Shown here piece by piece: positions 15,430 through 32,000 of a DNA stretch of 32,000 bases. The notes under the pieces were generated by a model. The model saw only the letters and a list, made by a program, of their open reading frames with translations. It did not search any database and had not been told where the DNA came from. Both the position numbers and the translations under genes were made by a program. The stretch is taken from positions 360,001-392,000 of the forward strand of contig SHMX01000003.1 of NCBI GenBank assembly GCA_008080745.1, read 5' to 3'. The stretch's first letter is position 1, and each line of letters starts with the position of its first letter. The DNA is from Candidatus Thorarchaeota archaeon (GTDB lineage Archaea > Asgardarchaeota > Thorarchaeia > Thorarchaeales > Thorarchaeaceae).

Positions 15430-16641
15430 TCAGGTTTCACTTGAAGCTGAGATATCAGCTGAGGGAATCCAGAATCGAAACAAACTACCCTGACTCGGAG
15501 AACCTGGTATTCGGTCTGAGACCTCAAGAAAACCATCATAGGTTTCAAGAATTTGACAACTCTGATGAATTCCAATACCCACCCTTCTCTGGCTAGTATC
15601 AAAGAGGATGGATTTCATTTCGGGTGTTATTCCAGGCCCATTATCAGAGATGGAAACTTGATATCCATCACGTACTGTTTCTAGTGTGACCCAAATGCGT
15701 TTGACCGGACGTGGGTTGTGCCGCACTGCATTCTGAAGAAGGTTCCAAATCATTTCGTCCAAGAGATCATTTGCCTGTACCACTGCGGAATCGGTATGAT
15801 ATCTGATTTCTACCAATGCATCGCTATAACATTGGGAGAGAAGATTCACAGAGTCCTTAATCGCAGCAATAAGGGATCGACATGTAAGAGGTTCCTCTTG
15901 AAGTTGTTCAGAGATCTCAATTCGAGATATCATTCGAGCGCTCCTCCAGACTGAATGTTCGATTACCTTGAGAAGATGTTCGATTTCTTCAGCAGCTGGC
16001 TATGCTCTAAGAAGTGATGTGCTGTGTAGAATTGTCTGCAGATGATTACGAATATCATGACTTAGGACACTGAAGTAAAGTTTTGCCCGCTCTAGAGCGA
16101 TACTCTCACTGTCTTGAGATTGCCTTCGTAGTATGCTCTGAGTTTTTGTGGCATTTTTGAGATGGTAGACATAGCTCAAATATTGACTAATTGTCTTTGC
16201 AATACGAAGGTCCAATTCGTGAAATTCGCTACTATTCCTGCCTATGTCAAATATAGCTAAAAGGTGCCCATGATAGATGATGGGAACTACCAGACAAAAG
16301 GAATCAACAAATCTATCTTCATTTTCAGTAATTTGATATTGTACCAGGGAACGCTGACTCATTGCCTGCAACCAATATTGATTGAGACTATGAGGAGAGA
16401 GAGAATATATTGGTTCATTACGTCTAATGTTTTGCCACCGTGAACCACTTGCGGATATGATGGTTAGTGCATCGTCTGAGCTAACCACTGCAAAAGCAGC
16501 ACTATCTGCGTGGAATATATCTATTACAATCCCGAGAAGTTCATCATTCGTTTTATTATCAGAGTTTTGGGAGAAGAACTGAATGATTTTCTGAATTGCC
16601 TCTAATACAGGATTGACAGAATCGGGCATCTCAAATTTCAC
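15430..16641 (-). pseudogene. GAF-HisKA-HATPase_c sensor histidine kinase interrupted by one in-frame TAG (16000-16002)
   Basis: Track ORFs 16000..16641 (GAF, H-box LSHDIRN) and 15430..15933 (NLLQNAVRHN, SISDNGPGI, GIGI) share a frame. The junction reads ...SLLRA-TAG-PAAEEIEHLLKVIEHSVWRSAR-MISRIE. GTG start has GGAGG 8 nt upstream. Confidence 0.8.
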
Positions 16642-18212: not shown

Positions 18213-18405
18213 AACCCAAGTCGATTTTCCGAATAGGGGAATCAAAAAATCACTTATATCATTATATGCAAATATAGTCATATCCAACCAGTCAAAAGTG
18301 AGATTGCTGGTGAATCAAAAATAAAACATAGAAGATAAATTGACCTTCTGTGCCAAGTATTATCTGTTGAGAACAGATTCCGGGACCATTTGAATCGGTG
18401 ATTAA

Positions 18406-21400
18406 ATGAAACTGAAAATATTCATAGCAGTTTTTGTAGTTCTACTATTGCTAATACCCACTACATCGGATAATATAGTAGAAAATCAATCCTCAACAAC
18501 AACTCCATTATTTCATAAATCGTCCTTCGTCGCTTCTTCATTGGGGTCAGGAAGTAATTCGGATTCAGTCATGTATTTTGAGAGAACCATTAGCTATCAA
18601 GAAATGCTCCTGCAAAACTCATATGCTACCCCAAATAATCACCAAGAGGGATTGTCATTCGAGCAATATCATATTTCTGGCTGGTCACTTTACAAGGCTG
18701 AAATGAAGATCGATAACATCACAGCTGGACTCGAATTTGAGGTATTAGGAGTATCAAAGGATGATTTATCCTCATTTAGCATAAATAACAGCACAGGAGA
18801 TCCATACGATATTCTTTCACAAGAATTGTATAATCAACCTCATAATGGACTCCTAGAGAATTATTCATTTTATTATTCAAATGAAAATTATAATCCAACA
18901 TATCAGAACTATGCTTTCCTAGTCATAAGGTCCAAAAAATCTGATCCAAGTACAAATATGACAAGTGCACATGCATTACCCAGTAAGGCTAACTTCGAAC
19001 AAAGCTGGTATACAATAACTGAACAAACAAATCTTTCAGCAGATATCTCATACTATCTATTACTTGACGGAGAAAAGTTGGTAGAATATTTTTCGACATA
19101 TCCAGTATTCAAATGGATTTGCGAAACTGGTGCAGGTAGTTATGCTACACAACGACATTATTCTTTTGGCGATCAATGGACACTATTCAATCGTAATGCA
19201 CTATTGAATTATACTTATACTCCATGGGATACCAACACCAATTCCGCATTGGTATTTAACAGTCCAGAAGAAATTTTCCTACAGGCAAATGGTACTAACC
19301 TATCTGGAGATACTTGGTCTTGGACTACAACTGATAACAATCTAGAACAAATTATCTTTAGCTCAAATCAGTCAATTTCAATATACAATAATATCACCTT
19401 ATATTACAAAAAGACAGGAGTCGCAGAAAATACATGGTCTATTGAAACTTCTGGAAGTGATGTCACATGGAACACCACAACCATGGTTTCGTATCCTGAT
19501 GACGCAGATAGTAATTCTATGAAATTGAATCTGACTATTCAGAGTGAATGGGGTACAAATGGATTGTACAAAGATACCAGTCCTGAAAACAACCATACAT
19601 TTTACACAAGAGAGGGAAATGTAATTATTAGTACCGATATTACCAATGGGACTTGGACACTTTCATCGACAGGATTTAACTATGTAAGAGAAATAGGCAT
19701 ATTCCAACAATCAGATTATTCAAAATCAATTCAAATACTGAAAATAACTGATATTTTGGATGTCATTCCAGTGATAAAGGATGGAGCAGGTATGAATGCT
19801 ACATCGGGTAGCACAAATCTCACTCTATGGCATGACTCAGAGGTGAAATGGGCACCAGAAAATGAAACACTGATCAATGGTTCTACAAATTATACTTGGA
19901 ATGTTTCTTCAACAACATCAGAAAATGGGAAATATAGAATCGAAGTATACTGGACAAATGGAACAGAAGCAGGATATCTAACAGAAATTATTGACATCTA
20001 TTATACAACTTTTCTAACAGCAATAACTGATAGTCTGACAGCTTTTACTGAGAGTTCATTTGAAATCGAGGTACAATATTATAATAACTTCAGTGATATT
20101 GGAATAGATGAAACAGGTGCAAGTTTAGTATATGATTTCGGCGGGACAAATTACACGATGTCACATCAAACGAACGGAACTTGGAAAGCAACTGTAAATA
20201 CAATTGGTTTTTCTAATGGCCCACACAGCATAACTGTCTATGCAGAGGGATATGGATATCACAACAGGACCGTAGCTATTGATGTAATACTCTTGCATGA
20301 AGCCAAACTCGATTTGAGTTGGGAGAGTAAATCTATCGATTGGACAGAAAGCACGATTTTCTCTGTGAATTATACTAAATTAGATGGGAGCTTGATTAGT
20401 GGAGCAAACCAGTTAGACCTTTACATTGATTCCCAATTATTAGAACTACAAGGAACAAATGGAACATATTGGATCGAGTTGAACAATACTTTTGGTCTTG
20501 GTGTTCATTCGCTAGAACTAAACATCAGCAAGCAATATTTTGAATCTGTATTTAACGACACGGTATCTTTCGAAATTACCGAAGCTAATACCACTCTTGC
20601 TATCAATTGGGACTCATCAGAAATCAATTATTTGGAGACATTCAATCTTACAGTTAGTTATACATATACACCAACTGGTACGTTCATAGATGCCATTGCA
20701 GATAATGTTAACATCACTATTGATGGCACCACAACTTTAAACATGAATAATTCAGGAAACTTTTGGATAGCAAACTTGACTGGATTCTATTTAGATTTGG
20801 GATCACATGAATTAACAATAGAGGCATGGAAGTATGGTTATGTCTACAGAACAGATACTCTCAATATTTCTGTACTAAATGTTTCTACATCAATGAGTGT
20901 TTCTTGGAATCCTGCTAATGTAGAGATTCAACATGTGGACAATTTGGAGTTAAATGTTGATTACACTTATGATACGGGTGATGTTCCAGATGATGCCCTC
21001 GTGAATGTTACAATTAATGGAAATATATACAATTTAGCATATACCGATGGAAGCTGGAGTACAATAATTCCCTGTAAATATTTGGGGGTAGGCGAATATT
21101 CAGCCACTATTGAGGCTTGGAGGTATGGCTATTCGTATCAAACAAATATAACCTATGGAATCAACATCACTATTGCTTATACAACCATGATGGCTCATTG
21201 GAATTTCTTAGAAATAGACTATATTGGGCAACTTGATTTGACTGTAAATTATACTATGAATATCAATGGTACATCTGTGCCCACTTCATCTACATTCATG
21301 AACATTACTATTGATGGTGGTAGCTCTATTGAGTTGAATCAATCTGGAAATCTATGGACTGCAAATTTGACTGGAATTTATTTGGATTTGGGTACACACA

Positions 21401-24400
21401 ACATTACCATCAAAGCTTGGTCGGTCGATTTTGAGTATCAAGTGATATATTCATCTGTAAATGTAACAACAGTATTAACAAGCTTACAGGTGACTTGGAA
21501 TCCTAACGATGTGACTATCGAACATGTACAAAATCTGAGTGTTTCAGCAGATTACACCTATCATAGTGGGGATGTACCAGATAGTGCAATAGTAAATGTA
21601 TCAATTGATGGAAAATACTACCAATTTTCCTACACTGGTGCTGTATGGGAATGTCAAATTACTGGTTCCGATTTTGATGTAGGGTTTTACGAAGCTAATG
21701 TCACAGCATGGGCATATGGTTTTGATGTAAAAATCAATATTACAGCAGGTGTGAATATTACTCAAGCAAGTACTTCATTAACCCTTGTTTGGACAAGTAC
21801 TTCCACAGACTATCTTGGTTGGATCAATCTAACAGCCAGTTATGTAGTCTTAGAAACCGGAGAATCAGTTCCATTAAGCACACCGAACATCAATATTACT
21901 ATCGATGGATCAACACCACTTGCATTGAATCAATCTGGGAATTATTGGGTAGCAAACCTAACAGGTTCATATCTGAATCTTGGAACTCATAATGTGGTTA
22001 TACTTGCTTGGAGTAATACGTACCAAGAACAGGAAATCCTAGAGAGCCTTGTTATCAATAATGTCACAACTAGTCTATCGGTAATCTGGAATCCAAATAA
22101 TGGAAAAATTGAACGTGTTGAAAATTTCGCATTAAGTGTAGACTATACCTTTTTCGGTGGCGATGTTCCTACCCCGGCTCATGTTAATGTATCCATTGAC
22201 GACAATGACTATACTTTGACATATTCATCAGGAGTCTGGAGTGTTACTATCTCCGGGCTAGATTTTTCTGTTGGAGAATACTCGGCTGTTATCCATTGTT
22301 GGAAATATGGATATGCATATCAGACAAACACTACAACGATAAATATCACGATAACTGAAACCAATTTAGATTTGAATTGGTCTTCTTTGGAGATAGACTA
22401 CCTTGGGCAAATTGATCTGGTATTGAACTATACAGTTAGTATCACTGGAGATTATGTTCCCGCATTATCATCAAATATCAACATCACAATTGATGGAAAG
22501 ACTGCAATTTCGTTGAATCAGTCTGGAAATGTATGGACTGCTAATCTTACAGGAATATATCTTGACCTGGGTAATCATAGTGTTACAATAAATGCTTGGA
22601 GTGATAGCTATGCCGCTCAAGAATACTCAACTTATCTAAATGTATCAGAAGTACTCACATTCATGACTGTAACTTGGAACCCATCAGATGTCGAGATTGA
22701 ACATGTGGAGAATCTTACCTTAATTATAGATTACACATACTCTGAAGGAGATGTTCCGATTAGTGCTCAAGTTAACACGACCATAAATGGAATTACATAT
22801 TCTCTAACATATAATGGTTCTAACTGGCAAGTACTGATTTCAGGATCAGACATCGGTGTTGGAGTTTTCAGTGCCACAGTTAGTTCGTGGAGGTATGGTT
22901 ATGCATACGCTTTGAATACAACAAGTGGAATAAATGTGACAGATGCACAAACAAATCTTTCACTGGCTTGGACAGATACAACATTAGATTACTTGGGACA
23001 AATTGAACTTACAGTTAACTATTCGGTTCTAATTACGGGCGAAGTTGTTCCAGCAGTACCATCTGAAATGAATGTTACCATTGATGGAATAACAACGATT
23101 TCACTGAATCAAAGTGGCGATTTATGGATAGCTAATCTCACTGGAATTTATCTGGATTTAGGAGACCATCTATTAATAGTACAAGCCTACGCTGATACTT
23201 ACGAATTTTCTCAAGCCTCAGAAACGATTACAGTATTAAATGTTTCAACAAATCCATTGCAAGTCATATGGCAACCAGAGAATGTCACCATAGAATACAC
23301 TCAGTATCTCAATTTGTCTGTGGCCTATACCTATGGAGTTGAAGATGTTCCAGGAACAGCTTTAGTGAATATTACTATCAATTCACTTACTTGGTCTTTG
23401 AATTACTCCAATGGTTTTTGGGAGGGTTCAATAATTGGTGAAGACATTGGTATTGGTATATTTACAGCTGAAATCGCTGCATGGTTATATGGATACGAGG
23501 AACAGCTAAATCTGACCTATAACGTCAATATCACAGAAGCCTCAAACACCTATGTGGTTATTTGGGAGCCGTCAGACAGAACAATATCCTACATTGAATT
23601 ATTCAATATATCAGTAATTTACACGCATAATTATGAACCGATTTCCGATGCAATAATCAACGTTACATTTGATGGTAGTATCACATATAATCTGACATTT
23701 AGTGAAACAGATGAGAGATGGCACTTCTCAATAAATGGCACTAACCTAGACTTAGGCGTACATAACATCCTAATAGAAGCGTGGGCTCAAGGCTATAAAA
23801 CAGGACTAACAATCAGTTCTGTGTTCGTGTCGAACGTTACAACATGGTTCAATATGGATTGGAACCCTCTGGATGCTAAGGTTGATCATCTTAGTAAAAT
23901 CAATCTGACTTTGGACTATCAACACTCATCTGGAAATGTACCTTCTGATGCAATTCTAAATCTAACTATCAATGGAATGACATCTCCACTCATCTTGATA
24001 AACAATAGATGGTATATATCAATTAATGGATCGGATTTGGGTAAAGGGGAATTTTCTGCATATATTCAAGGGTGGAGATATGGATTTGAATATATAACTA
24101 ACACAACCAATGTAAATATCACAATAGCTTTTACTAATATTGAATACAAGAATAGTAATCTTTCATTTCAGTATATGGGCCAATTTGACATTCAATTTAA
24201 TTATTCATATTCTATTTCTGGAGAAACAATTAATATTCTTAGTCCAAATGCAAACCTGACCATTGATGGTGAAACAACAATCGAACTTAATCAAACAGGG
24301 GACACATGGACGGCAAACATTACTGGTGAATTTCTTGACTTGGGAGAGCATGAAATTATTTTCAGTTTCTGGGCAGAAGGTTATCAGGAGCAACTGTTGA

Positions 24401-27400
24401 TTTTATCGCTCTATGTTGAAAATGAATCAACATACCTATCCGTAGATTGGAATCCATCAAATGTTACAATCCAATATACCGAAACATTAGAAATTTTTGT
24501 TGACTATGAATATGACACCTCCGATGTACCAGATACTTCGATTGTTAATGTAACAATAGATGCTCATCATTACTCATTATCTTATAATGGAGGACAATGG
24601 TATATTTCGATTCCTGGTGAAACAATCGGAATAGGTGTATTTGAAGCAGTTATAGAAGCATGGACATATGGATTTGAGTACAAAACGAATACCACTTTTG
24701 GAATCAATATCACTCTTGCTGCTAATTCGTTTATTGTAGATTGGTGCCCAGATGTATTAGAAACATCATTCATTACAGAATTTGAGATAAGAGTGTATTT
24801 CACTCACGATTGGCAACCAATTCTTGGGGCTAATGTGTGTTTAATCAAAAACGGAACTATAATTGATTATTTCAGCTATAATTCAACTAACGAGTCTTAT
24901 GACCTCCTTATTTCAGCGAAAACAATTGATTTGGGATTATGGAATATAACCGTATATGCGAATAAAATAGGTTATGAAAATCAATGGGATTCTAAAATAT
25001 ATACTGTGATCGAAGATAGCACAACACATCAGCTGTCATGGACGACGATGCAAATATCCTATGTTAATTCTACAACACTTAGAGTGAATCTAACAGCATC
25101 AGATCATACTCCGCTCCCTTCGGTCACATTCCAAGCGACAATAGACAACAAAATATTTTCAGGAAATGAGGTTGTCGAGGGTTGCTACGAGTTCATCTTG
25201 GGTCCCGAACTATCCATTGGGATTCATAATATAACATTTGATGCTTCGAAATATGGCTATAGTTTCAATTTGCCGACACCATCAATAGAAATTATTGAAG
25301 CAGCTACAGAGGCATTCTTTCACATCAACAATAAAGAGCTATATTATGATGAAGCATTATCACTGTCCATTATCTATGAATTGACAAATGGCAGTGTTAT
25401 TGAATCAGCAACGTGTCAGCTTGAAATTGATGACAAACCTATTTCGGTTCAATGGGATTTTGATCATTGGTACGTGACTATTTTTTCAAACTCTTTAGGA
25501 ATCGGAAATCATAATGGCTCATTAAATCTAACGCTATATGGCTACGAATCTCAAACGATTGATTTCAATTTGACTATTCAGAATATACCGACCAGATTGG
25601 ATGTTTCTGGAAGCTTCTTCAGCTATGTCAATCAATCATTTACTCTTGAGATAGTACTAACCGACCTGAGAAATAATTCTCCAATTACACCAGTTACATT
25701 TGATATTTCATGGTCCGAATTGTTCCATATTGATGTTAATTCTTCAGAAGTTTATCAAATTGTCTTTATCACTGAAGGATTTCATGTTGGAAGTGTTCCA
25801 CTTGCGATTAGTATACTTAATGAAGGAATTAGTGATTCGGAATGGACAGGTAGTATTGATATTCGAGCTATTCCGCTCAATATCATGACGGAGGAGGAGA
25901 TTTCTCAATATGAAAATGAGATGGTGAATATCTCTGTTAGTATTAGAAACGCAATCACGGACGATAATGTGTGTTGGAGCAAAGTGGACCTGAGTTCGGA
26001 TATCATCAATACAACTCTCTATTGGAACGATATTTCCCAATACGAAGTTAGTTTTGAATTGCCATCAGATAACCCTGGGAACTATACACTGATTCTTTCT
26101 ATTGAGACATATGATTGTGAAAATTACACATTATCCATCGAGCTTGAGATTCTGGAAAAAGCAACCATAACAATCACTCTATCTTCTGAAGCAGAGGTTA
26201 TTGCTGGAGAAGATCTTCAAGTTAGTGCGTTGGTTGAGAGAAATAATCAGCCAGTAATGGGTGCAATAATAGAATTTCATGCAACTATACTAATGAATGA
26301 CGGTTCTGAAAGAATACTCGAGGACTCTCAAATTTCTAACAACGAGGGTATATGTACCGCCACATTTAGCATTCCACTTGAGGCTAAATCATTGCAAGTG
26401 TGGGCATCTTATGATGGGAATGTTCAAAATCATAATGCCACATCGAGTTTCAGTTCAGTATCAGTTTATTCTGCAAGAGCCCAGATTGGAGAACTCCTGT
26501 GGAATACCTTTTCTAATCCATTGGCTTTGATTCTGTTTGCAGGATTGATTTCAATTATCTTGATCAGAAAATCCAGCCAAAATAGAAGTTCTGTTAAAGA
26601 AGAACCCATCGAAGAAGATATCGTCCTTGAGGCTTTTGATGTTGAAGATAGTACTGCATTGTCAGTATCAACGGAAATTCCTCCTGATGATGAATCAATA
26701 GAGGTATCGCTCATATCCGAAGAGGTATTTGTCCCAGAATTCCTAATTATAATAGAAAATAGAGAACCAATTCTTTCCTACTCATTACAAGGAAATGAGA
26801 TAGCACCACATCTCATAATTGCAATTTCAAATGAGATTATCAGAAGAAGTCCAAGGATAGGTGATAATTTTGATATTTCACTATCAGATTTGAGATTACA
26901 ATGTTACCGAAATGAAGATGCGATAGGGGTAATTGTTGCTCATTCACAACTTACATCTGATCAAAAAATGAATCTTGAATCACTCATTGATATGATAACA
27001 CCCATTCATTCAAAATTAGAGGATAACGAGTCTGAAATAAACCAATTACTGATTGCTCAGACAAATTCGCTATTTTACGCAAAGATTCTTGATAATCTGA
27101 AGATTGATGATATTGGAGAGTTAGAGAATATCGATAAAGAGTTAGCTATTGCTCTTCAGAAAATTATTGATATAGACCAAGAATTTACTGTCAAAGCAAT
27201 TAAGGATCAAATTTGTATGGAGCTTGATATTAATTCAGCTATCCTGCTATCGAGAATAGAATATCTTGTTTCAAAATCGGTGATACAGCCCCACTACTCA
27301 GAGGATAAATTACTCATTTCTAAGAATTTAGAACTAAGTGACGAGGAGCGAATTTTGGCTAAACTTGCATTCTCAGATGGAATGACTAGAGCAAAAATTG

Positions 27401-27528
27401 CAGTTGCATTAGATATGCCCATTTCACGTGTTGGACGTATTATCAGAGAACTATTGAAGACTAAACCAGGTTTAGATGAAATCAGAGATGGGCGGAAAAG
27501 ACTAGTGGTATATAGTTATAAATTATAA
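18406..27528 (+). CDS. Giant single-pass surface glycoprotein with an Ig-like repeat stalk and a cytoplasmic longin-like + winged-helix tail
   Basis: Signal peptide MKLKIFIAVFVVLLLLIPT; Thr/Asn/Ser-rich beta repeats; TM NPLALILFAGLISIILIRK (about 26515-26571); acidic linker; about 260-aa cytoplasmic domain ending in an HTH-like motif. GGTGA RBS at 18397-18401. Confidence 0.85.
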   Translation: MKLKIFIAVFVVLLLLIPTTSDNIVENQSSTTTPLFHKSSFVASSLGSGSNSDSVMYFERTISYQEMLLQNSYATPNNHQEGLSFEQYHISGWSLYKAEMKIDNITAGLEFEVLGVSKDDLSSFSINNSTGDPYDILSQELYNQPHNGLLENYSFYYSNENYNPTYQNYAFLVIRSKKSDPSTNMTSAHALPSKANFEQSWYTITEQTNLSADISYYLLLDGEKLVEYFSTYPVFKWICETGAGSYATQRHYSFGDQWTLFNRNALLNYTYTPWDTNTNSALVFNSPEEIFLQANGTNLSGDTWSWTTTDNNLEQIIFSSNQSISIYNNITLYYKKTGVAENTWSIETSGSDVTWNTTTMVSYPDDADSNSMKLNLTIQSEWGTNGLYKDTSPENNHTFYTREGNVIISTDITNGTWTLSSTGFNYVREIGIFQQSDYSKSIQILKITDILDVIPVIKDGAGMNATSGSTNLTLWHDSEVKWAPENETLINGSTNYTWNVSSTTSENGKYRIEVYWTNGTEAGYLTEIIDIYYTTFLTAITDSLTAFTESSFEIEVQYYNNFSDIGIDETGASLVYDFGGTNYTMSHQTNGTWKATVNTIGFSNGPHSITVYAEGYGYHNRTVAIDVILLHEAKLDLSWESKSIDWTESTIFSVNYTKLDGSLISGANQLDLYIDSQLLELQGTNGTYWIELNNTFGLGVHSLELNISKQYFESVFNDTVSFEITEANTTLAINWDSSEINYLETFNLTVSYTYTPTGTFIDAIADNVNITIDGTTTLNMNNSGNFWIANLTGFYLDLGSHELTIEAWKYGYVYRTDTLNISVLNVSTSMSVSWNPANVEIQHVDNLELNVDYTYDTGDVPDDALVNVTINGNIYNLAYTDGSWSTIIPCKYLGVGEYSATIEAWRYGYSYQTNITYGINITIAYTTMMAHWNFLEIDYIGQLDLTVNYTMNINGTSVPTSSTFMNITIDGGSSIELNQSGNLWTANLTGIYLDLGTHNITIKAWSVDFEYQVIYSSVNVTTVLTSLQVTWNPNDVTIEHVQNLSVSADYTYHSGDVPDSAIVNVSIDGKYYQFSYTGAVWECQITGSDFDVGFYEANVTAWAYGFDVKINITAGVNITQASTSLTLVWTSTSTDYLGWINLTASYVVLETGESVPLSTPNINITIDGSTPLALNQSGNYWVANLTGSYLNLGTHNVVILAWSNTYQEQEILESLVINNVTTSLSVIWNPNNGKIERVENFALSVDYTFFGGDVPTPAHVNVSIDDNDYTLTYSSGVWSVTISGLDFSVGEYSAVIHCWKYGYAYQTNTTTINITITETNLDLNWSSLEIDYLGQIDLVLNYTVSITGDYVPALSSNINITIDGKTAISLNQSGNVWTANLTGIYLDLGNHSVTINAWSDSYAAQEYSTYLNVSEVLTFMTVTWNPSDVEIEHVENLTLIIDYTYSEGDVPISAQVNTTINGITYSLTYNGSNWQVLISGSDIGVGVFSATVSSWRYGYAYALNTTSGINVTDAQTNLSLAWTDTTLDYLGQIELTVNYSVLITGEVVPAVPSEMNVTIDGITTISLNQSGDLWIANLTGIYLDLGDHLLIVQAYADTYEFSQASETITVLNVSTNPLQVIWQPENVTIEYTQYLNLSVAYTYGVEDVPGTALVNITINSLTWSLNYSNGFWEGSIIGEDIGIGIFTAEIAAWLYGYEEQLNLTYNVNITEASNTYVVIWEPSDRTISYIELFNISVIYTHNYEPISDAIINVTFDGSITYNLTFSETDERWHFSINGTNLDLGVHNILIEAWAQGYKTGLTISSVFVSNVTTWFNMDWNPLDAKVDHLSKINLTLDYQHSSGNVPSDAILNLTINGMTSPLILINNRWYISINGSDLGKGEFSAYIQGWRYGFEYITNTTNVNITIAFTNIEYKNSNLSFQYMGQFDIQFNYSYSISGETINILSPNANLTIDGETTIELNQTGDTWTANITGEFLDLGEHEIIFSFWAEGYQEQLLILSLYVENESTYLSVDWNPSNVTIQYTETLEIFVDYEYDTSDVPDTSIVNVTIDAHHYSLSYNGGQWYISIPGETIGIGVFEAVIEAWTYGFEYKTNTTFGINITLAANSFIVDWCPDVLETSFITEFEIRVYFTHDWQPILGANVCLIKNGTIIDYFSYNSTNESYDLLISAKTIDLGLWNITVYANKIGYENQWDSKIYTVIEDSTTHQLSWTTMQISYVNSTTLRVNLTASDHTPLPSVTFQATIDNKIFSGNEVVEGCYEFILGPELSIGIHNITFDASKYGYSFNLPTPSIEIIEAATEAFFHINNKELYYDEALSLSIIYELTNGSVIESATCQLEIDDKPISVQWDFDHWYVTIFSNSLGIGNHNGSLNLTLYGYESQTIDFNLTIQNIPTRLDVSGSFFSYVNQSFTLEIVLTDLRNNSPITPVTFDISWSELFHIDVNSSEVYQIVFITEGFHVGSVPLAISILNEGISDSEWTGSIDIRAIPLNIMTEEEISQYENEMVNISVSIRNAITDDNVCWSKVDLSSDIINTTLYWNDISQYEVSFELPSDNPGNYTLILSIETYDCENYTLSIELEILEKATITITLSSEAEVIAGEDLQVSALVERNNQPVMGAIIEFHATILMNDGSERILEDSQISNNEGICTATFSIPLEAKSLQVWASYDGNVQNHNATSSFSSVSVYSARAQIGELLWNTFSNPLALILFAGLISIILIRKSSQNRSSVKEEPIEEDIVLEAFDVEDSTALSVSTEIPPDDESIEVSLISEEVFVPEFLIIIENREPILSYSLQGNEIAPHLIIAISNEIIRRSPRIGDNFDISLSDLRLQCYRNEDAIGVIVAHSQLTSDQKMNLESLIDMITPIHSKLEDNESEINQLLIAQTNSLFYAKILDNLKIDDIGELENIDKELAIALQKIIDIDQEFTVKAIKDQICMELDINSAILLSRIEYLVSKSVIQPHYSEDKLLISKNLELSDEERILAKLAFSDGMTRAKIAVALDMPISRVGRIIRELLKTKPGLDEIRDGRKRLVVYSYKL
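20581..25020 (+). repeat. Coding tandem repeat with a 591-nt (197-aa) period, built from ~100-aa modules
   Basis: The Nx(S/T)G anchor codon falls at 20746, 21337, 21928, 22516, 23107 and 24289 (gaps 591, 591, 588, 591, 1182). Confidence 0.9.
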
Positions 27529-27736
27529 TGCCTTTCGAAATATCGAAATTGGTTAGAGCCCAGTGTATTGAAATAGTCTTATGTAGGTAAAGTTATCACG
27601 ACCCAAGTGAAATTCCGTTGAATATAGAAAGAAGGATAGATACGTACACAATTCGTATAAGGGATAATTATCCAACAACATTGTATTGCGTATATCCACA
27701 AGAAGACACATCATGCTACACTTGTGAGGGACCACA

Positions 27737-30700
27737 ATGAAGAGAGCATTCCTGTCAATAATGGCAATCGTTCTGTTGACTGTGACAATTGCATCACCGC
27801 AATTTGCCACCCATCAGAATAATCTAGAAACAGCTAGTAATCCACTACTAAAACAAGAAACGGTGTTATCATCTGTAGTAGAAAGTGGAGATGAAATTTC
27901 ATCTATACAACATATGATACGGGAAATACCAAATCAGCAGACTACAATTCTAAATTCGTACGTAAATCCAAATACGCATAATTTAGTATTAGATTTCTCA
28001 CAGTATCATGTTCCAGGTTGGTCCCTATACAAAGCAGATATGGATATTGAAAATATAACTGCAGGATTAGAATTCGAAGTATTAGGTGTTTCAAAAGACG
28101 ATAGCACATCTTTTAGCATAAATAATGACACGGGAGATCCCTACGATATTTTGTCACAAGGTTTCTATAATCAACCTCATAACGGACTGTTGCAGAACTA
28201 TTCTTTCTATTATCAGGATGTTGGTTATAACCCGGATTTTCAAAATTATGCATTCTCAGTAATAAGGTCAGATAGATCCAACCCTAGTACAAACATGACC
28301 AGTCCTGTTGCTTTATCTACTACAAGTCTCGCTTTTGTTTGGCGAACAATAACTGAACAAACAAACTTGTCAGCATATACAACCTATTATACCCTCATTG
28401 ACGGAGAGGCATTAGTTGAATATACTGGTAACTATCCTGATTTTCATTGGGTCTGCGAGAGCGGAGCAGGTGATTTTAATACTGAACGTCATTATTCCTT
28501 CGGAGACCAGTGGACAATATTCAATCGAGAAGCTCTATTGAATTACACATATACACCATGGAATGTTTCGACAAATTCAGCTCTAATATTTCAGAATCCT
28601 GAAGAAATACTGTTGCAAGCAAATAGCAGTGACTTATCAGGAAGCATGTGGTCATGGACAACCTCTACTGACAATCTTGAACAGATTACATTTAGTTCCA
28701 ATCAGTCGGTCAATATATTCAACAACCTAACTCTGTACTACAAACAAACCGTGACAAGTACAACACAATGGTCAATAGAAACAACTGGCGATCCAGTTAC
28801 TTGGAATGTTACAACTGCATTATCATATCCAGAAGTTACAGGTATTACGGAGAAGAATTTGAATATAAGTATCCAATCGGATTGGGACACATCGGGACTA
28901 TATAATATTACTACACCGTCCACCAATCATAGCACATATGAAAGGTATCTGGATATTGTTGTCTGTAGCAGTCTTACAAACGGTACTTGGACTTTAGTTT
29001 CAACAGGATTCAACTATATGACCGATTTAGCAGCCTATCAACAGAGTGACCATTTGAACCCTGTATCAGTTTCTGTCATTACGGACACGCTTGATATCAT
29101 ATCTCAAATTGAAGATGAGGGAGGTACTAATGCAACTACAGGAAGTACTAACCTAACTATATGGTACGAAGGATCAGTAATCTGGGCACCTACTAATGAA
29201 TCAGTTATCGATGGCTCGACAGAATACACCTGGGATATTTCCACAATTACATCAGGTAACGGAGAATATACCATAGAAGAATACTGGACTAACGGTACTG
29301 AAGCAGGATACAGAGCGTATAGCATTGTGGTGTATTTCCCAACAGATCTGACTCCAAGCTCATCCACTATTTTCGCGTATGCTGAAAATTCGTTTACATT
29401 TAGTGTCCAATTTGATGATACATTCACTCCAAAAGGGTTGAATGACTCAGTTGCATCCGTTGAGTATTCATTTGATGGAGGAGTATATACTGCAATGACC
29501 CATGATGCTGGGGGAAACTGGTCAGCCACTGTTTCAACAATTGGAAAGACAGAGGGAAGCTATAATCTTATAGTAAATGCAACTGGTTTTGCACTAGAAA
29601 ACCAAAGTATCACGATATCCGTCGAACTAGTATATGAAACACTTGCTCTTGAATGTACATGGTCACTTCCAAACGAGGATAATATATCATACTTGGAGAA
29701 CACTGAACTCACTGTTAGATATCAGACCACGGGATACAACATATCCGACGCAATTGTCAATGTCACTATTGATGTATACACTTGGGACCTGACATTCGAT
29801 GCTACAACAGAAACTTACAAAGTCCAGGTTAATGGTACAGATTTCCAAGATGGTCTGGGCACATTCCCCGTTACAATTGAGGCATGGAGTCCTGGACACG
29901 CACCCCAAACGAATACAAGTCTCGAACTTACCATCATGGCTGAAGCAACCTCAATGACCGATATCTGGACGGGTCTATCGATTGATTATCTGGGACAGGT
30001 TGATGTCACAATTGATTATACCATTGTTTCGACAGCATCAGAGGTTCCTATGGGAGAAGTAGTAGGCAATATTACCATAGATGGAACTACAGTAATTTCG
30101 CTCACACAATCAGGTACTCAGTGGATTGCCAACCTCACAGGGGCCACGATTGATCTTGGAACACACACAGCTGTGATTCATATTTGGGCTTATGGATACC
30201 AATACAGAACAGCTAGTGAAACTCTTGATGTCAGTAATGTCACAACATCCATAGATGTATCTTGGACACCATTGAATCTAACCAGACAATATTCTGGTTA
30301 TTATGATGTAGTTGTTGATTACACCTATTATGGAGGAGATGTTCCTGGTTCAGCACTTGTCAATGTTACAATCAATGGACAGACTTTCGGACTCTCATAT
30401 TCCACAGGGGCATGGAGAGTATCGATTGCTGCATCAAATCTTGATATTGGAGAGTATTCAGCCTCAATCAGTGCTTGGCTCTATGGATACGCACACCAGA
30501 CAAATACTACTTCAACTCTAAATATCACACTTGCAAATACAACAATAGTCACAAATTGGTCCAACTATGATCTGTACTTTACTCATTCCGTAGACCTTAA
30601 CATTACATTACTTGATATCTATGCACAGCCAATTACTACAGCTCTTGTTAATGCATCTTATGAAGGAACGAATTATACGCTAAGTTATTTGGGAGGAGGA

Positions 30701-32000
30701 ACACACCGACTTGTCTTCAATGGATCAGACGGCCTCGGAACCTATCCAATCCAAATTTACACTTGGAATTATGGATTCTATAATGAAACAACATCAATTA
30801 CTCTGAACATAGTGCAAACACCCACAAGTATCGATGCATCTACAAAAATACAAGGTTATAGTGAGAGTATTTTATATCATGATGGAAAGGTGACCTACTC
30901 AGTTCTGTTTGAAGATATCGATAGCAATCGGATTGATTCAGCCCTAGTGAACTTTACTATAGATGGGATAATTTACAATATGACAGCTCTCGGAAATGGT
31001 AATTACACCATATCCTTTGATGGAGAGGACCTGGGTGTAGGCTCATTCGCTGTTGAACTACACGCATGGAAATACGGATATGCTCCCCAAACCTTGACGC
31101 CAACAATAGTGGTCAATCCAAACCCCACCTATATAGAAATTATCGAAGATACAGAAACGACTATCTTTCTTAATGACACCAGAACAGTAAGAGTACGATA
31201 CATAGACAATCACACTGGAATGATTCTCTCGATTGATACAGAATACATCTCTTGGCCCGGAACTATATCATATAACAATCCTTCAGCAGGAGAGTATGAG
31301 ATTGAGTTCTCAACATTTTACACCCTAGGTAATCATATTCTCAATGTCACATTGGTAAAGGAAAACTACACAATAGGTCAAAAAATATGGGAGATAACCA
31401 TACGCCCAGTCAATACAATATTCATACCTATTGGTGAGTATACCGAATATGAGAATGAAAGTATTACCTTTAGTGCTAATTATACCGATATAGATCATCA
31501 TGAGTTCATCTATTGGGGAAATGTGAGCATTACAATTGATGGTGTAACATATCAGTTAGAATACACCACAAGTGGAATATATAGTCGTACAATACCTCTC
31601 ACTATTGAAGATGGGGATTATACAATCACCTTTGAGGCGATAGCTGACGGATGTGCGACAAATACCACTTATGTTCTTCTTAACCTCCTTACTAAGACGG
31701 ATGTGCAATTAGTTTTAGAAGTACCAAACACAGCTACGGAGGGGAATACTATTGGAATACAAGCTATACTTACTGATGCCGTAGATAATCCAATAACCTT
31801 TGCAACAGTGACCTTTTCCGTGGATGTTCGATTCGAAAATGGTACAGTTAGACAATTTACCTATTCAGACACGACTAATGCAAATGGTGAAGCTAATTGG
31901 GCATACGTAGTACCAGACGGAGGGGAGAATAGAGTGAACTCCCTTACAGTCAATGCGTATTATGATCCCACGGTTGATAACGTAAAGAGCAATTGGGATG
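27737..32000 (+). CDS. Second giant surface protein, tandem paralog of 18406..27528; 3' end truncated by the window
   Basis: Not in the ORF track because it has no stop. Hand-translated with no stop over 1421 codons: MKRAFLSIMAIVLLTVTIAS...YHVPGWSLYKADMDIENITAGLEFEVLGVSKDD...WTNGTEAGY..., closely matching the first gene. GAGGG RBS at 27726-27730. Confidence 0.92.
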   Translation, partial: MKRAFLSIMAIVLLTVTIASPQFATHQNNLETASNPLLKQETVLSSVVESGDEISSIQHMIREIPNQQTTILNSYVNPNTHNLVLDFSQYHVPGWSLYKADMDIENITAGLEFEVLGVSKDDSTSFSINNDTGDPYDILSQGFYNQPHNGLLQNYSFYYQDVGYNPDFQNYAFSVIRSDRSNPSTNMTSPVALSTTSLAFVWRTITEQTNLSAYTTYYTLIDGEALVEYTGNYPDFHWVCESGAGDFNTERHYSFGDQWTIFNREALLNYTYTPWNVSTNSALIFQNPEEILLQANSSDLSGSMWSWTTSTDNLEQITFSSNQSVNIFNNLTLYYKQTVTSTTQWSIETTGDPVTWNVTTALSYPEVTGITEKNLNISIQSDWDTSGLYNITTPSTNHSTYERYLDIVVCSSLTNGTWTLVSTGFNYMTDLAAYQQSDHLNPVSVSVITDTLDIISQIEDEGGTNATTGSTNLTIWYEGSVIWAPTNESVIDGSTEYTWDISTITSGNGEYTIEEYWTNGTEAGYRAYSIVVYFPTDLTPSSSTIFAYAENSFTFSVQFDDTFTPKGLNDSVASVEYSFDGGVYTAMTHDAGGNWSATVSTIGKTEGSYNLIVNATGFALENQSITISVELVYETLALECTWSLPNEDNISYLENTELTVRYQTTGYNISDAIVNVTIDVYTWDLTFDATTETYKVQVNGTDFQDGLGTFPVTIEAWSPGHAPQTNTSLELTIMAEATSMTDIWTGLSIDYLGQVDVTIDYTIVSTASEVPMGEVVGNITIDGTTVISLTQSGTQWIANLTGATIDLGTHTAVIHIWAYGYQYRTASETLDVSNVTTSIDVSWTPLNLTRQYSGYYDVVVDYTYYGGDVPGSALVNVTINGQTFGLSYSTGAWRVSIAASNLDIGEYSASISAWLYGYAHQTNTTSTLNITLANTTIVTNWSNYDLYFTHSVDLNITLLDIYAQPITTALVNASYEGTNYTLSYLGGGTHRLVFNGSDGLGTYPIQIYTWNYGFYNETTSITLNIVQTPTSIDASTKIQGYSESILYHDGKVTYSVLFEDIDSNRIDSALVNFTIDGIIYNMTALGNGNYTISFDGEDLGVGSFAVELHAWKYGYAPQTLTPTIVVNPNPTYIEIIEDTETTIFLNDTRTVRVRYIDNHTGMILSIDTEYISWPGTISYNNPSAGEYEIEFSTFYTLGNHILNVTLVKENYTIGQKIWEITIRPVNTIFIPIGEYTEYENESITFSANYTDIDHHEFIYWGNVSITIDGVTYQLEYTTSGIYSRTIPLTIEDGDYTITFEAIADGCATNTTYVLLNLLTKTDVQLVLEVPNTATEGNTIGIQAILTDAVDNPITFATVTFSVDVRFENGTVRQFTYSDTTNANGEANWAYVVPDGGENRVNSLTVNAYYDPTVDNVKSNWD

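Follow-up and report, generated by a model that had tools for sequence, protein, structure and literature searches.

A giant surface glycoprotein of a Thorarchaeota archaeon with a longin-like domain and a conserved winged helix-turn-helix in its predicted cytoplasmic tail

The 32,000-nucleotide stretch studied here (the window) covers positions 360,001 to 392,000 of contig SHMX01000003.1 from a Candidatus Thorarchaeota archaeon (GenBank assembly GCA_008080745.1) and contains gene A, a single open reading frame (ORF) of 3040 codons. The encoded protein is a very large type-I glycoprotein of the cell surface, in which a signal peptide and a head domain precede at least 19 immunoglobulin (Ig)-like repeats and one transmembrane (TM) helix, followed by a 320-residue tail in which a divergent longin, probably an acidic winged helix, and a basic winged helix-turn-helix (wHTH) are found one after another. 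The fusion of ectodomain, TM helix and tail is real, and the wHTH is the conserved core of this tail, to which the longin and the acidic winged helix are added modules. Judging from sequence, we put first the reading of gene A as a transmembrane one-component regulator or adaptor that has the longin–winged-helix docking module as an accessory, and estimate its probability at about 45%. The features of gene A are as follows.

18406..27528, plus strand: gene A (P0001), type-I single-pass surface glycoprotein, 3040 residues, one open frame
18406..18471, plus strand: signal peptide, residues 1–22; KD-19 hydropathy 2.0–2.4 from residues 1–8 on, MKR-hydrophobic start shared by orthologs
18472..20031, plus strand: N-terminal head domain, residues 23–542 (about 520 residues), common to the tandem paralog B as judged by A–B identity
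20032..25557, plus strand: 19 tandem Ig-like repeats of about 97 residues, residues 543–2384, by iterated hidden Markov model (HMM)
25558..26493, plus strand: membrane-proximal beta domains including a Big_3_5-like Ig domain (residues 2593–2687), by Pfam and ortholog colinearity
26494..26565, plus strand: TM helix, residues 2697–2720, the only strong internal hydrophobic peak, with no charged residue inside
26566..26736, plus strand: acidic cytoplasmic linker, residues 2721–2777, D/E 16 versus K/R 4; AlphaFold2 (AF2) predicted local distance difference test score (pLDDT) below 50 at its modelled end
26737..27096, plus strand: divergent longin domain, residues 2778–2872, with a third helix to 2897, by AF2, Foldseek, VIA-align and hhalign
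27136..27321, plus strand: acidic winged-helix-like segment, residues 2911–2972, moderate support (AF2 pLDDT about 50, hhalign)
27334..27516, plus strand: C-terminal basic wHTH of transcription-factor type, residues 2977–3037, by AF2, VIA-align and Pfam matches of orthologs

Orthologs of gene A were collected from 86 genomes of the same GTDB family, and a profile of the wHTH alone was run against 201 genomes sampled across the phylum, including 158 genomes of 26 other families. Giant ORFs ending in the wHTH (about 2880–3370 aa where complete) belong to four genera of the family, g1, g3, g6 and g8. In 13 of the 201 genomes the profile found a single copy each, in every case on the giant ORF; it gave no match in the 158 genomes of the other families, while its carriers in a collection of 5.8 billion proteins were Ig-repeat/TM/wHTH proteins or fragments thereof. 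The wHTH is the sole tail element present in all orthologs found: in g6 and g8 it follows the TM helix at a distance of just 30–45 residues, g3 orthologs have a longin in between, and the longin is known in two genera in total. Within the C-terminal 700 residues, moreover, nothing is better conserved than the wHTH (29–40% identity versus 23–30% for the ectodomain). An MKR start with a signal peptide was present at the 5′ ends of all eight orthologs checked (2880–3370 aa), and two 55-kb contigs from separate marine-sediment runs, which may be the source data of the assembly, span nucleotides 25800–27900 unbroken and without a difference. Because the junction recurs in orthologs of four genera and is crossed by these contigs, the fusion was accepted as genuine, and its origin by frameshift or misassembly, named in the initial annotation as what would undo its proposal if the tail were absent from homologs, was rejected.

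The wHTH was modelled by AF2 as three helices followed by two strands (residues 2979–3036, pLDDT 92–98) ending 4 residues before the stop. The tail model used a 52-row alignment (A3), since a run from the single sequence of residues 2690–3040 was useless (mean pLDDT 36) and was replaced by it. By VIA-align the terminal domain superposes on SelB, AntR, NolR, CzrA, SmtB and MarR-type domains with Z of about 10 and a root-mean-square deviation (rmsd) of 1.6–2.6 Å over 60–63 residues. Pfam HTH_24 was matched by 14 of the 23 wHTH orthologs (best E 7.8e-6), and further matches among them were to HTH_23, DUF7343, MarR_2, IclR, HTH_20, TrmB and sigma-70 region 4; against the PDB the profile found a CAP-derived designed repeat (E 4e-8) as well as SloR and LexA. 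The net charge of the domain is +4 in gene A and from 0 to +5 across the alignment, being positive in 25 of 26 rows. Helices 2 and 3 open with conserved TR and S..K, respectively, and G-[RK]-x-R is conserved in the wing. This basic charge, the conserved wing and kinship to models of DNA-binding HTH domains point to nucleic-acid binding as the most likely function of the domain, although every Pfam HTH match of gene A itself is sub-threshold. As to the MarR/ArsR-like HTH of the initial annotation, the likeness holds for the core of 60–63 residues, which is preceded by a low-confidence segment; the flanking dimerisation helices of such proteins are absent from the model.

Residues 2778–2872 are a longin, as judged by the predicted fold and by an indirect sequence link via a paralogous family. 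The topology beta-beta-alpha-beta-beta-beta-alpha(-alpha), which in longins spans about 100–120 residues, was modelled with pLDDT 80–93 at residues 2779–2872, with strands at 2779–2784, 2787–2793, 2821–2826, 2829–2835 and 2840–2845 and helices at 2801–2814, 2851–2872 and 2875–2897 (in model numbering E15–20, E23–29, H37–50, E57–62, E65–71, E76–81, H87–108 and H111–133). These elements fall exactly on the segments from which a longin had been proposed by eye, and all the peptides quoted then stand where they had been placed: the hydrophobic stretch at 26494/26521, EFLIIIENREP at 26737, APHLII at 26803, FDISLSDLRL at 26869, TSDQKM at 26953, EINQLL at 27034, FTVKAIKDQI at 27184, LSDEERILAKL at 27334 and IRDGRKRLVVY at 27481. 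In the Foldseek comparison of the tail with the PDB the top match was chain C of GATOR1 (E 1e-4 to 8e-4, 285–323 columns, the entire tail spanned), which we take to be NPRL3 from its modelled length (400–461 residues); searching the PDB by sequence with one of the soluble paralogs in order to name this chain gave nothing useful. Lower in the ranking were zeta-COP, AP sigma/mu, the longins of VAMP7 and Sec22b, LAMTOR roadblocks and Mon1-Ccz1, with a probability of 0.99–1.0 for zeta-COP, AP sigma, VAMP7 and Sec22b. VIA-align placed the longin nearest to DENND1A (Z 11.5), VAMP7 (11.1), LokiRagM, the roadblock of an Asgard Rag-like GTPase (10.8), AP2 sigma (10.1) and synbindin (10.0), so that solved longins are matched with Z 10–11.5 and rmsd 3.0–3.7 Å over 106–114 residues. 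Structural neighbours of the tail in the Atlas were Asgard hypothetical proteins, synaptobrevin/longin proteins and an Arf-type GTPase fusion of Thorarchaeota.

Direct sequence searches with the tail returned little. No longin model of Pfam or NCBIfam matched it, a phmmer search of 1.84 billion representatives retrieved nothing besides the product of gene A and two fragments corresponding to the last wHTH, phmmer against the PDB gave WhiG alone (E 0.87), and the genome itself contains no paralog of the whole tail. The tails of A and B were aligned by BLASTP colinearly, though not significantly (E 0.59), and the HMM of the B family gave 3–5 bits only on tail A; because both fell short, profile–profile comparison was needed. 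With hhalign the alignment of A-type longins matched the longin family of the genome at 93.8% (E 1.8e-7), and the A-type profile matched B-type tails in dozens of genomes (E 1e-7 to 1e-9).

The segment between the longin and the wHTH is probably a winged helix, not of the DNA-binding type. AF2 gave three helices plus short strands with pLDDT of about 50, the poor modelling being due to the fact that one other sequence alone covers that part of the alignment. In local mode hhalign matched it to the winged helix of B-type tails at 77% (E 2e-5), in global mode at 62%. Its composition (K+R 7 versus D+E 10) is net acidic, which speaks against a DNA-binding type, and the domain was found in this genus alone (G000, G001). 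Thus, of the two winged helices suggested initially, the C-terminal one is confidently predicted (pLDDT 92–98), and the first one (about residues 2927–2972) stands at a moderate level, via alignment with the paralog profile alone, and turned out to be acidic.

The frame of gene A is unbroken over 3040 codons up to the stop codon at 27526–27528; it occupies C3:378406-387528 in a genome of 3.16 Mb with a completeness of 98%. Gene A and paralog B are 41% identical across their first 1323 residues, that is, in the head and repeats; the head domain of both matched no Pfam family, and a lead from the Atlas (lectin-like plus Big proteins of methanogens, 0.76) was too weak for use. An iterated HMM built from one repeat unit retrieved the 19 copies with E from 1e-17 to 5e-32. 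Pfam Big_3_5 scored 34.3 bits at a cut-off of 35.5, weak matches to Big_1 and Invasin_D3 were registered as well, and orthologs are colinear with the ectodomain up to the TM helix at 23–30% identity. Database relatives of parts of gene A are proteins of metagenome-assembled genomes (MAGs) labelled Thorarchaeota, Sifarchaeia or Promethearchaeota, all annotated as “hypothetical protein”, and Atlas neighbours are likewise Asgard.

The KD-19 peak of the TM helix is 2.29, the N-terminal signal peptide is the only other strongly hydrophobic stretch, and RK..R follows the helix, which is the positive-inside pattern. Since N-x-S/T sequons crowd the 2700-residue ectodomain (125) and are nearly absent from the 320-residue tail (2), the tail is predicted to be cytoplasmic (N-out/C-in). 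The description of an ectodomain of about 2700 residues joined by one TM helix and an acidic cytoplasmic linker to the tail, an architecture quite unlike that of an ordinary S-layer or adhesin protein, is borne out by these data. A PGF-CTERM sorting signal with archaeosortase anchoring was considered and rejected: such a signal places a TM helix and a short basic tail at the very end of the chain, but here 320 residues lie beyond the TM helix, and the PEFG-CTERM model scored 13.8 bits at a cut-off of 25.

Gene A is followed in tandem by its paralog.

27737..32000, plus strand: paralog B, 1849 residues, running beyond the window to C3:393286, with TM helix, longin, winged helix and acidic end

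Paralog B has the same head and repeats as gene A, then one TM helix, a more clear-cut longin, a winged helix and, at its end, an acidic stretch of about 150 residues, and the order A-then-B is kept throughout the family. Its longin–winged-helix module is 45–69% identical within the family and ends ORFs of 1000–2250 aa in many other Asgard families (24–35% identity). A complex prediction for the longins of A and B scored 0.01, a value obtained without controls that says nothing either way. Directly 3′ of B there is an ORF of about 99 aa (C3:393353-393652) with no Pfam match, 50–64% identical in 11 relatives of the family and 89% identical in a near-identical MAG; it is always found behind B and is a candidate third member of the A–B cluster.

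Iteration from the longin of B over the ORFs of the genome collected a family of about 41 copies of a domain of about 95 residues with a DPxLxSGFxSAxxxF helix. None has a Pfam hit over the cut-off, the copies are separate from the 16 Pfam Roadblock matches of the genome, 5 of 21 members match Fuz_longin_1 below the cut-off, and the family profile matches longin 1 of human MON1A (E 4e-4). Four other large sequon-rich proteins (1583–2159 aa) have one TM helix about 50 residues ahead of a longin of the same family, and the genome also encodes about seven multi-TM proteins with a C-terminal longin, three proteins combining TPR with a longin and many small proteins made of a longin and a winged helix. 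Membrane-tethered longins are a recurrent theme in this organism. Example loci of the family are listed below.

C1:609014-615490: example locus of the longin family of the genome
C1:634458-639521: example locus of the longin family of the genome
C3:288873-293621: example locus of the longin family of the genome

At C3:176758-179783 a Pfam Roadblock/LC7 gene adjoins two tandem genes of the longin–winged helix–winged helix type (L017 and L020), of which L017 weakly matches HTH_NPRL3 and HTH_47.

About 60–95 nucleotides 5′ of the start codons of gene A orthologs there is a shared element, ACATA-R-N-AGCT ... CTTTTCAAA in genus g6, and a matching element, ACATAGAAGATAAATTGACC, stands in the window at 18326–18345. 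It is probably a promoter element; a search for operators in the upstream regions of nine orthologs found this promoter-proximal element only and nothing tying it to the wHTH. Elsewhere in the window, two adjacent minus-strand ORFs (15430–16641) carry a GAF domain (16000–16641) and a HATPase_c domain (15430–15933); they resemble parts of a sensor kinase in which no HisKA domain was recognised, and could be a split or unusual one.

If gene A is a transmembrane one-component regulator or adaptor, its long ectodomain would meet a ligand, a surface or a partner cell, and the tethered wHTH would serve as the output, binding nucleic acid either at the membrane, as in the logic of ToxR, CadC and ArnR, or after cleavage. 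The longin–winged-helix module, added in two genera, may then provide a platform for dimerisation or for docking of longin/roadblock proteins or small GTPases. Several observations weigh against this assignment. Every Pfam HTH match of gene A itself stays below the curated cut-off (HTH_23, 21.6 versus 24.6 bits), its wHTH is modelled as a minimal three-helix-plus-wing domain without ArsR/MarR dimerisation helices, and the window contains no GTPase, protease or obvious target gene beside gene A. Trafficking complexes of Asgard archaea and eukaryotes, besides, commonly use winged helices for protein–protein contacts. The longin, which the initial annotation linked to GTPase signalling, is the least conserved part of the tail and is missing from most orthologs, the wHTH being the conserved core; the longin evolves fast, with about 21% identity even within the genus, and the near-invariant glycine in the beta1–beta2 turn of the genome’s longin family is R2786 in gene A. 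Given this divergence, the substitution and the absence in most orthologs, the longin of gene A may be dispensable. A plausible, if tentative, alternative is that the protein is an adhesin or fibre, which the longin–winged-helix module and the wHTH only tie to cytoplasmic partners for positioning or clustering, with no role in transcription; longin/roadblock dimers, small GTPases, the cytoskeleton and the acidic tail of B could be such partners. Winged helices and longins act as protein–protein modules in GATOR1, ESCRT-II and TRAPP, and the whole tail resembles GATOR1 chain C. An anchoring function is also favoured by the acidic first winged helix, by the single-TM and multi-TM proteins of the genome ending in the same longin family, by the presence of longin–winged-helix tails on large ORFs of many Asgard families and by the conserved neighbourhood of A with B and its acidic end. 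Cultured Lokiarchaeia, in addition, have no ordered S-layer, show complex surface proteins and are closely associated with other cells in syntrophy (PMC9834061). However, the wHTH is by sequence kin to DNA-binding HTH families and not to winged helices of the NPRL or ESCRT type, it is basic and has a conserved basic wing, and the lack of the longin in most orthologs means that docking through it is not the conserved function of gene A.

It is also conceivable, but in our opinion unlikely, that, in line with the main idea of the initial annotation, the tail regulates small GTPases at the membrane, the longin acting alone or in an NPRL2–NPRL3-like pair with the longin of B as a platform of the guanine nucleotide exchange factor or GTPase-activating protein (GAP) kind, which would recruit or switch a Rag-, Arf- or Rab-like GTPase depending on the state of the ectodomain. 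The nearest solved relatives of the longin are indeed GTPase regulators or platforms (GATOR1, DENND1A, Mon1-Ccz1, the LAMTOR/Rag roadblock and LokiRagM), and Asgard genomes are rich in longins and small GTPases (PMC10933270; bioRxiv 10.1101/2020.10.19.343400). Yet the A-type longin is just the part that is poorly conserved and mostly missing, many longins (SNARE, adaptor, SRX) do not regulate GTPases, and there is no GTPase gene within the window. GAP-type longins have as their catalytic signature an arginine finger together with a GP motif that precedes strand 2 (PMC12290439); in gene A the G-P is not present, R2786 occupying the turn in place of the family glycine. As for the last explanation, that the tail is an artefactual fusion or a decaying remnant behind an ordinary surface anchor, its fast divergence and the nearly empty single-sequence searches could be understood in this way. 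Against it stand the junction found within one ORF in relatives of four genera, its coverage by the two contigs, the conservation of the wHTH above that of the ectodomain and the high confidence with which both folded domains are predicted, so that we regard such an origin as extremely improbable.

Going beyond the one-component regulator or adaptor, one can imagine, by analogy with Notch/SREBP or ToxR, a contact-sensing receptor, which we hold for rather improbable as a whole. A surface fibre of perhaps 80–90 nm would signal the binding of a partner cell or particle to the genome via the tethered or released wHTH, the NPRL2/3-like longin–winged-helix platform on A and B would recruit Rag/Arf-like GTPases to the site of contact, and the acidic tail of B might restrain the basic wHTH at the end of A. 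Genes for longins, roadblocks and small GTPases of Asgard archaea have so far been treated as soluble and with no known input (PMC10933270; bioRxiv 10.1101/2020.10.19.343400). In the gene A family a glycosylated giant ectodomain, an NPRL2-like longin–winged-helix module and a wHTH of transcription-factor type are joined in one chain via a single TM helix, and the 320-residue tail and the 65-residue wHTH are concrete constructs for asking if signals from surface proteins of Asgard archaea reach DNA, GTPases or both. Should either be the case, receptor signalling of eukaryotes would have a simple counterpart here in a prokaryote; if neither is, gene A would be an unusual anchor.

A full-text literature search, incomplete in its coverage, found no paper on giant Asgard surface proteins with such tails. 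Among known systems the closest to the module itself are the Asgard NPRL2-like longin proteins, which are soluble and for which fusions to two-component domains are known (bioRxiv 10.1101/2020.10.19.343400). The module is of this kind and is common to gene A, paralog B and many Asgard surface proteins: as in NPRL2-like proteins and in NPRL2–NPRL3 of GATOR1, a longin is followed by C-terminal winged-helix domains, and the soluble paralogs in this genome weakly match Pfam HTH_NPRL3 and HTH_47. Unlike the soluble proteins, gene A has this module tethered by one TM helix to a glycosylated ectodomain of 2700 residues, carries an extra terminal wHTH, and differs from the longin family of the genome in the replaced turn glycine. 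With Mon1/Fuzzy/HPS1 (Fuz_longin_1), DENN (uDENN), VAMP7/Sec22b and AP sigma/zeta-COP it shares the longin fold, but none of these families is known to be tethered to a membrane behind a surface protein. Longins as such are expanded in Asgard archaea (PMC10933270). B-type proteins share with gene A the head, the repeats, the order of TM helix, longin and winged helix and the tandem position; their tails are, however, strongly conserved and end in an acidic segment, whereas in A-type proteins the longin is divergent or missing and the tail closes with a basic wHTH absent from B. Transmembrane transcription regulators (ToxR, CadC, TcpP and the archaeal ArnR/ArnR1) are known in archaea too (PMC10269533), and like them gene A crosses the membrane once, between an extracytoplasmic portion and an HTH-type domain anchored near the membrane on the cytoplasmic side. 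By the features that define such regulators, gene A has the TM region (residues 2697–2720) and a confidently predicted wHTH fold, its own Pfam HTH matches being sub-threshold. While in classical regulators of this class the DNA-binding domain is N-terminal and the sensor small, gene A is a type-I protein with a C-terminal wHTH, a giant Ig-repeat ectodomain and a longin–winged-helix insert, a new architectural variant assembled from known parts.

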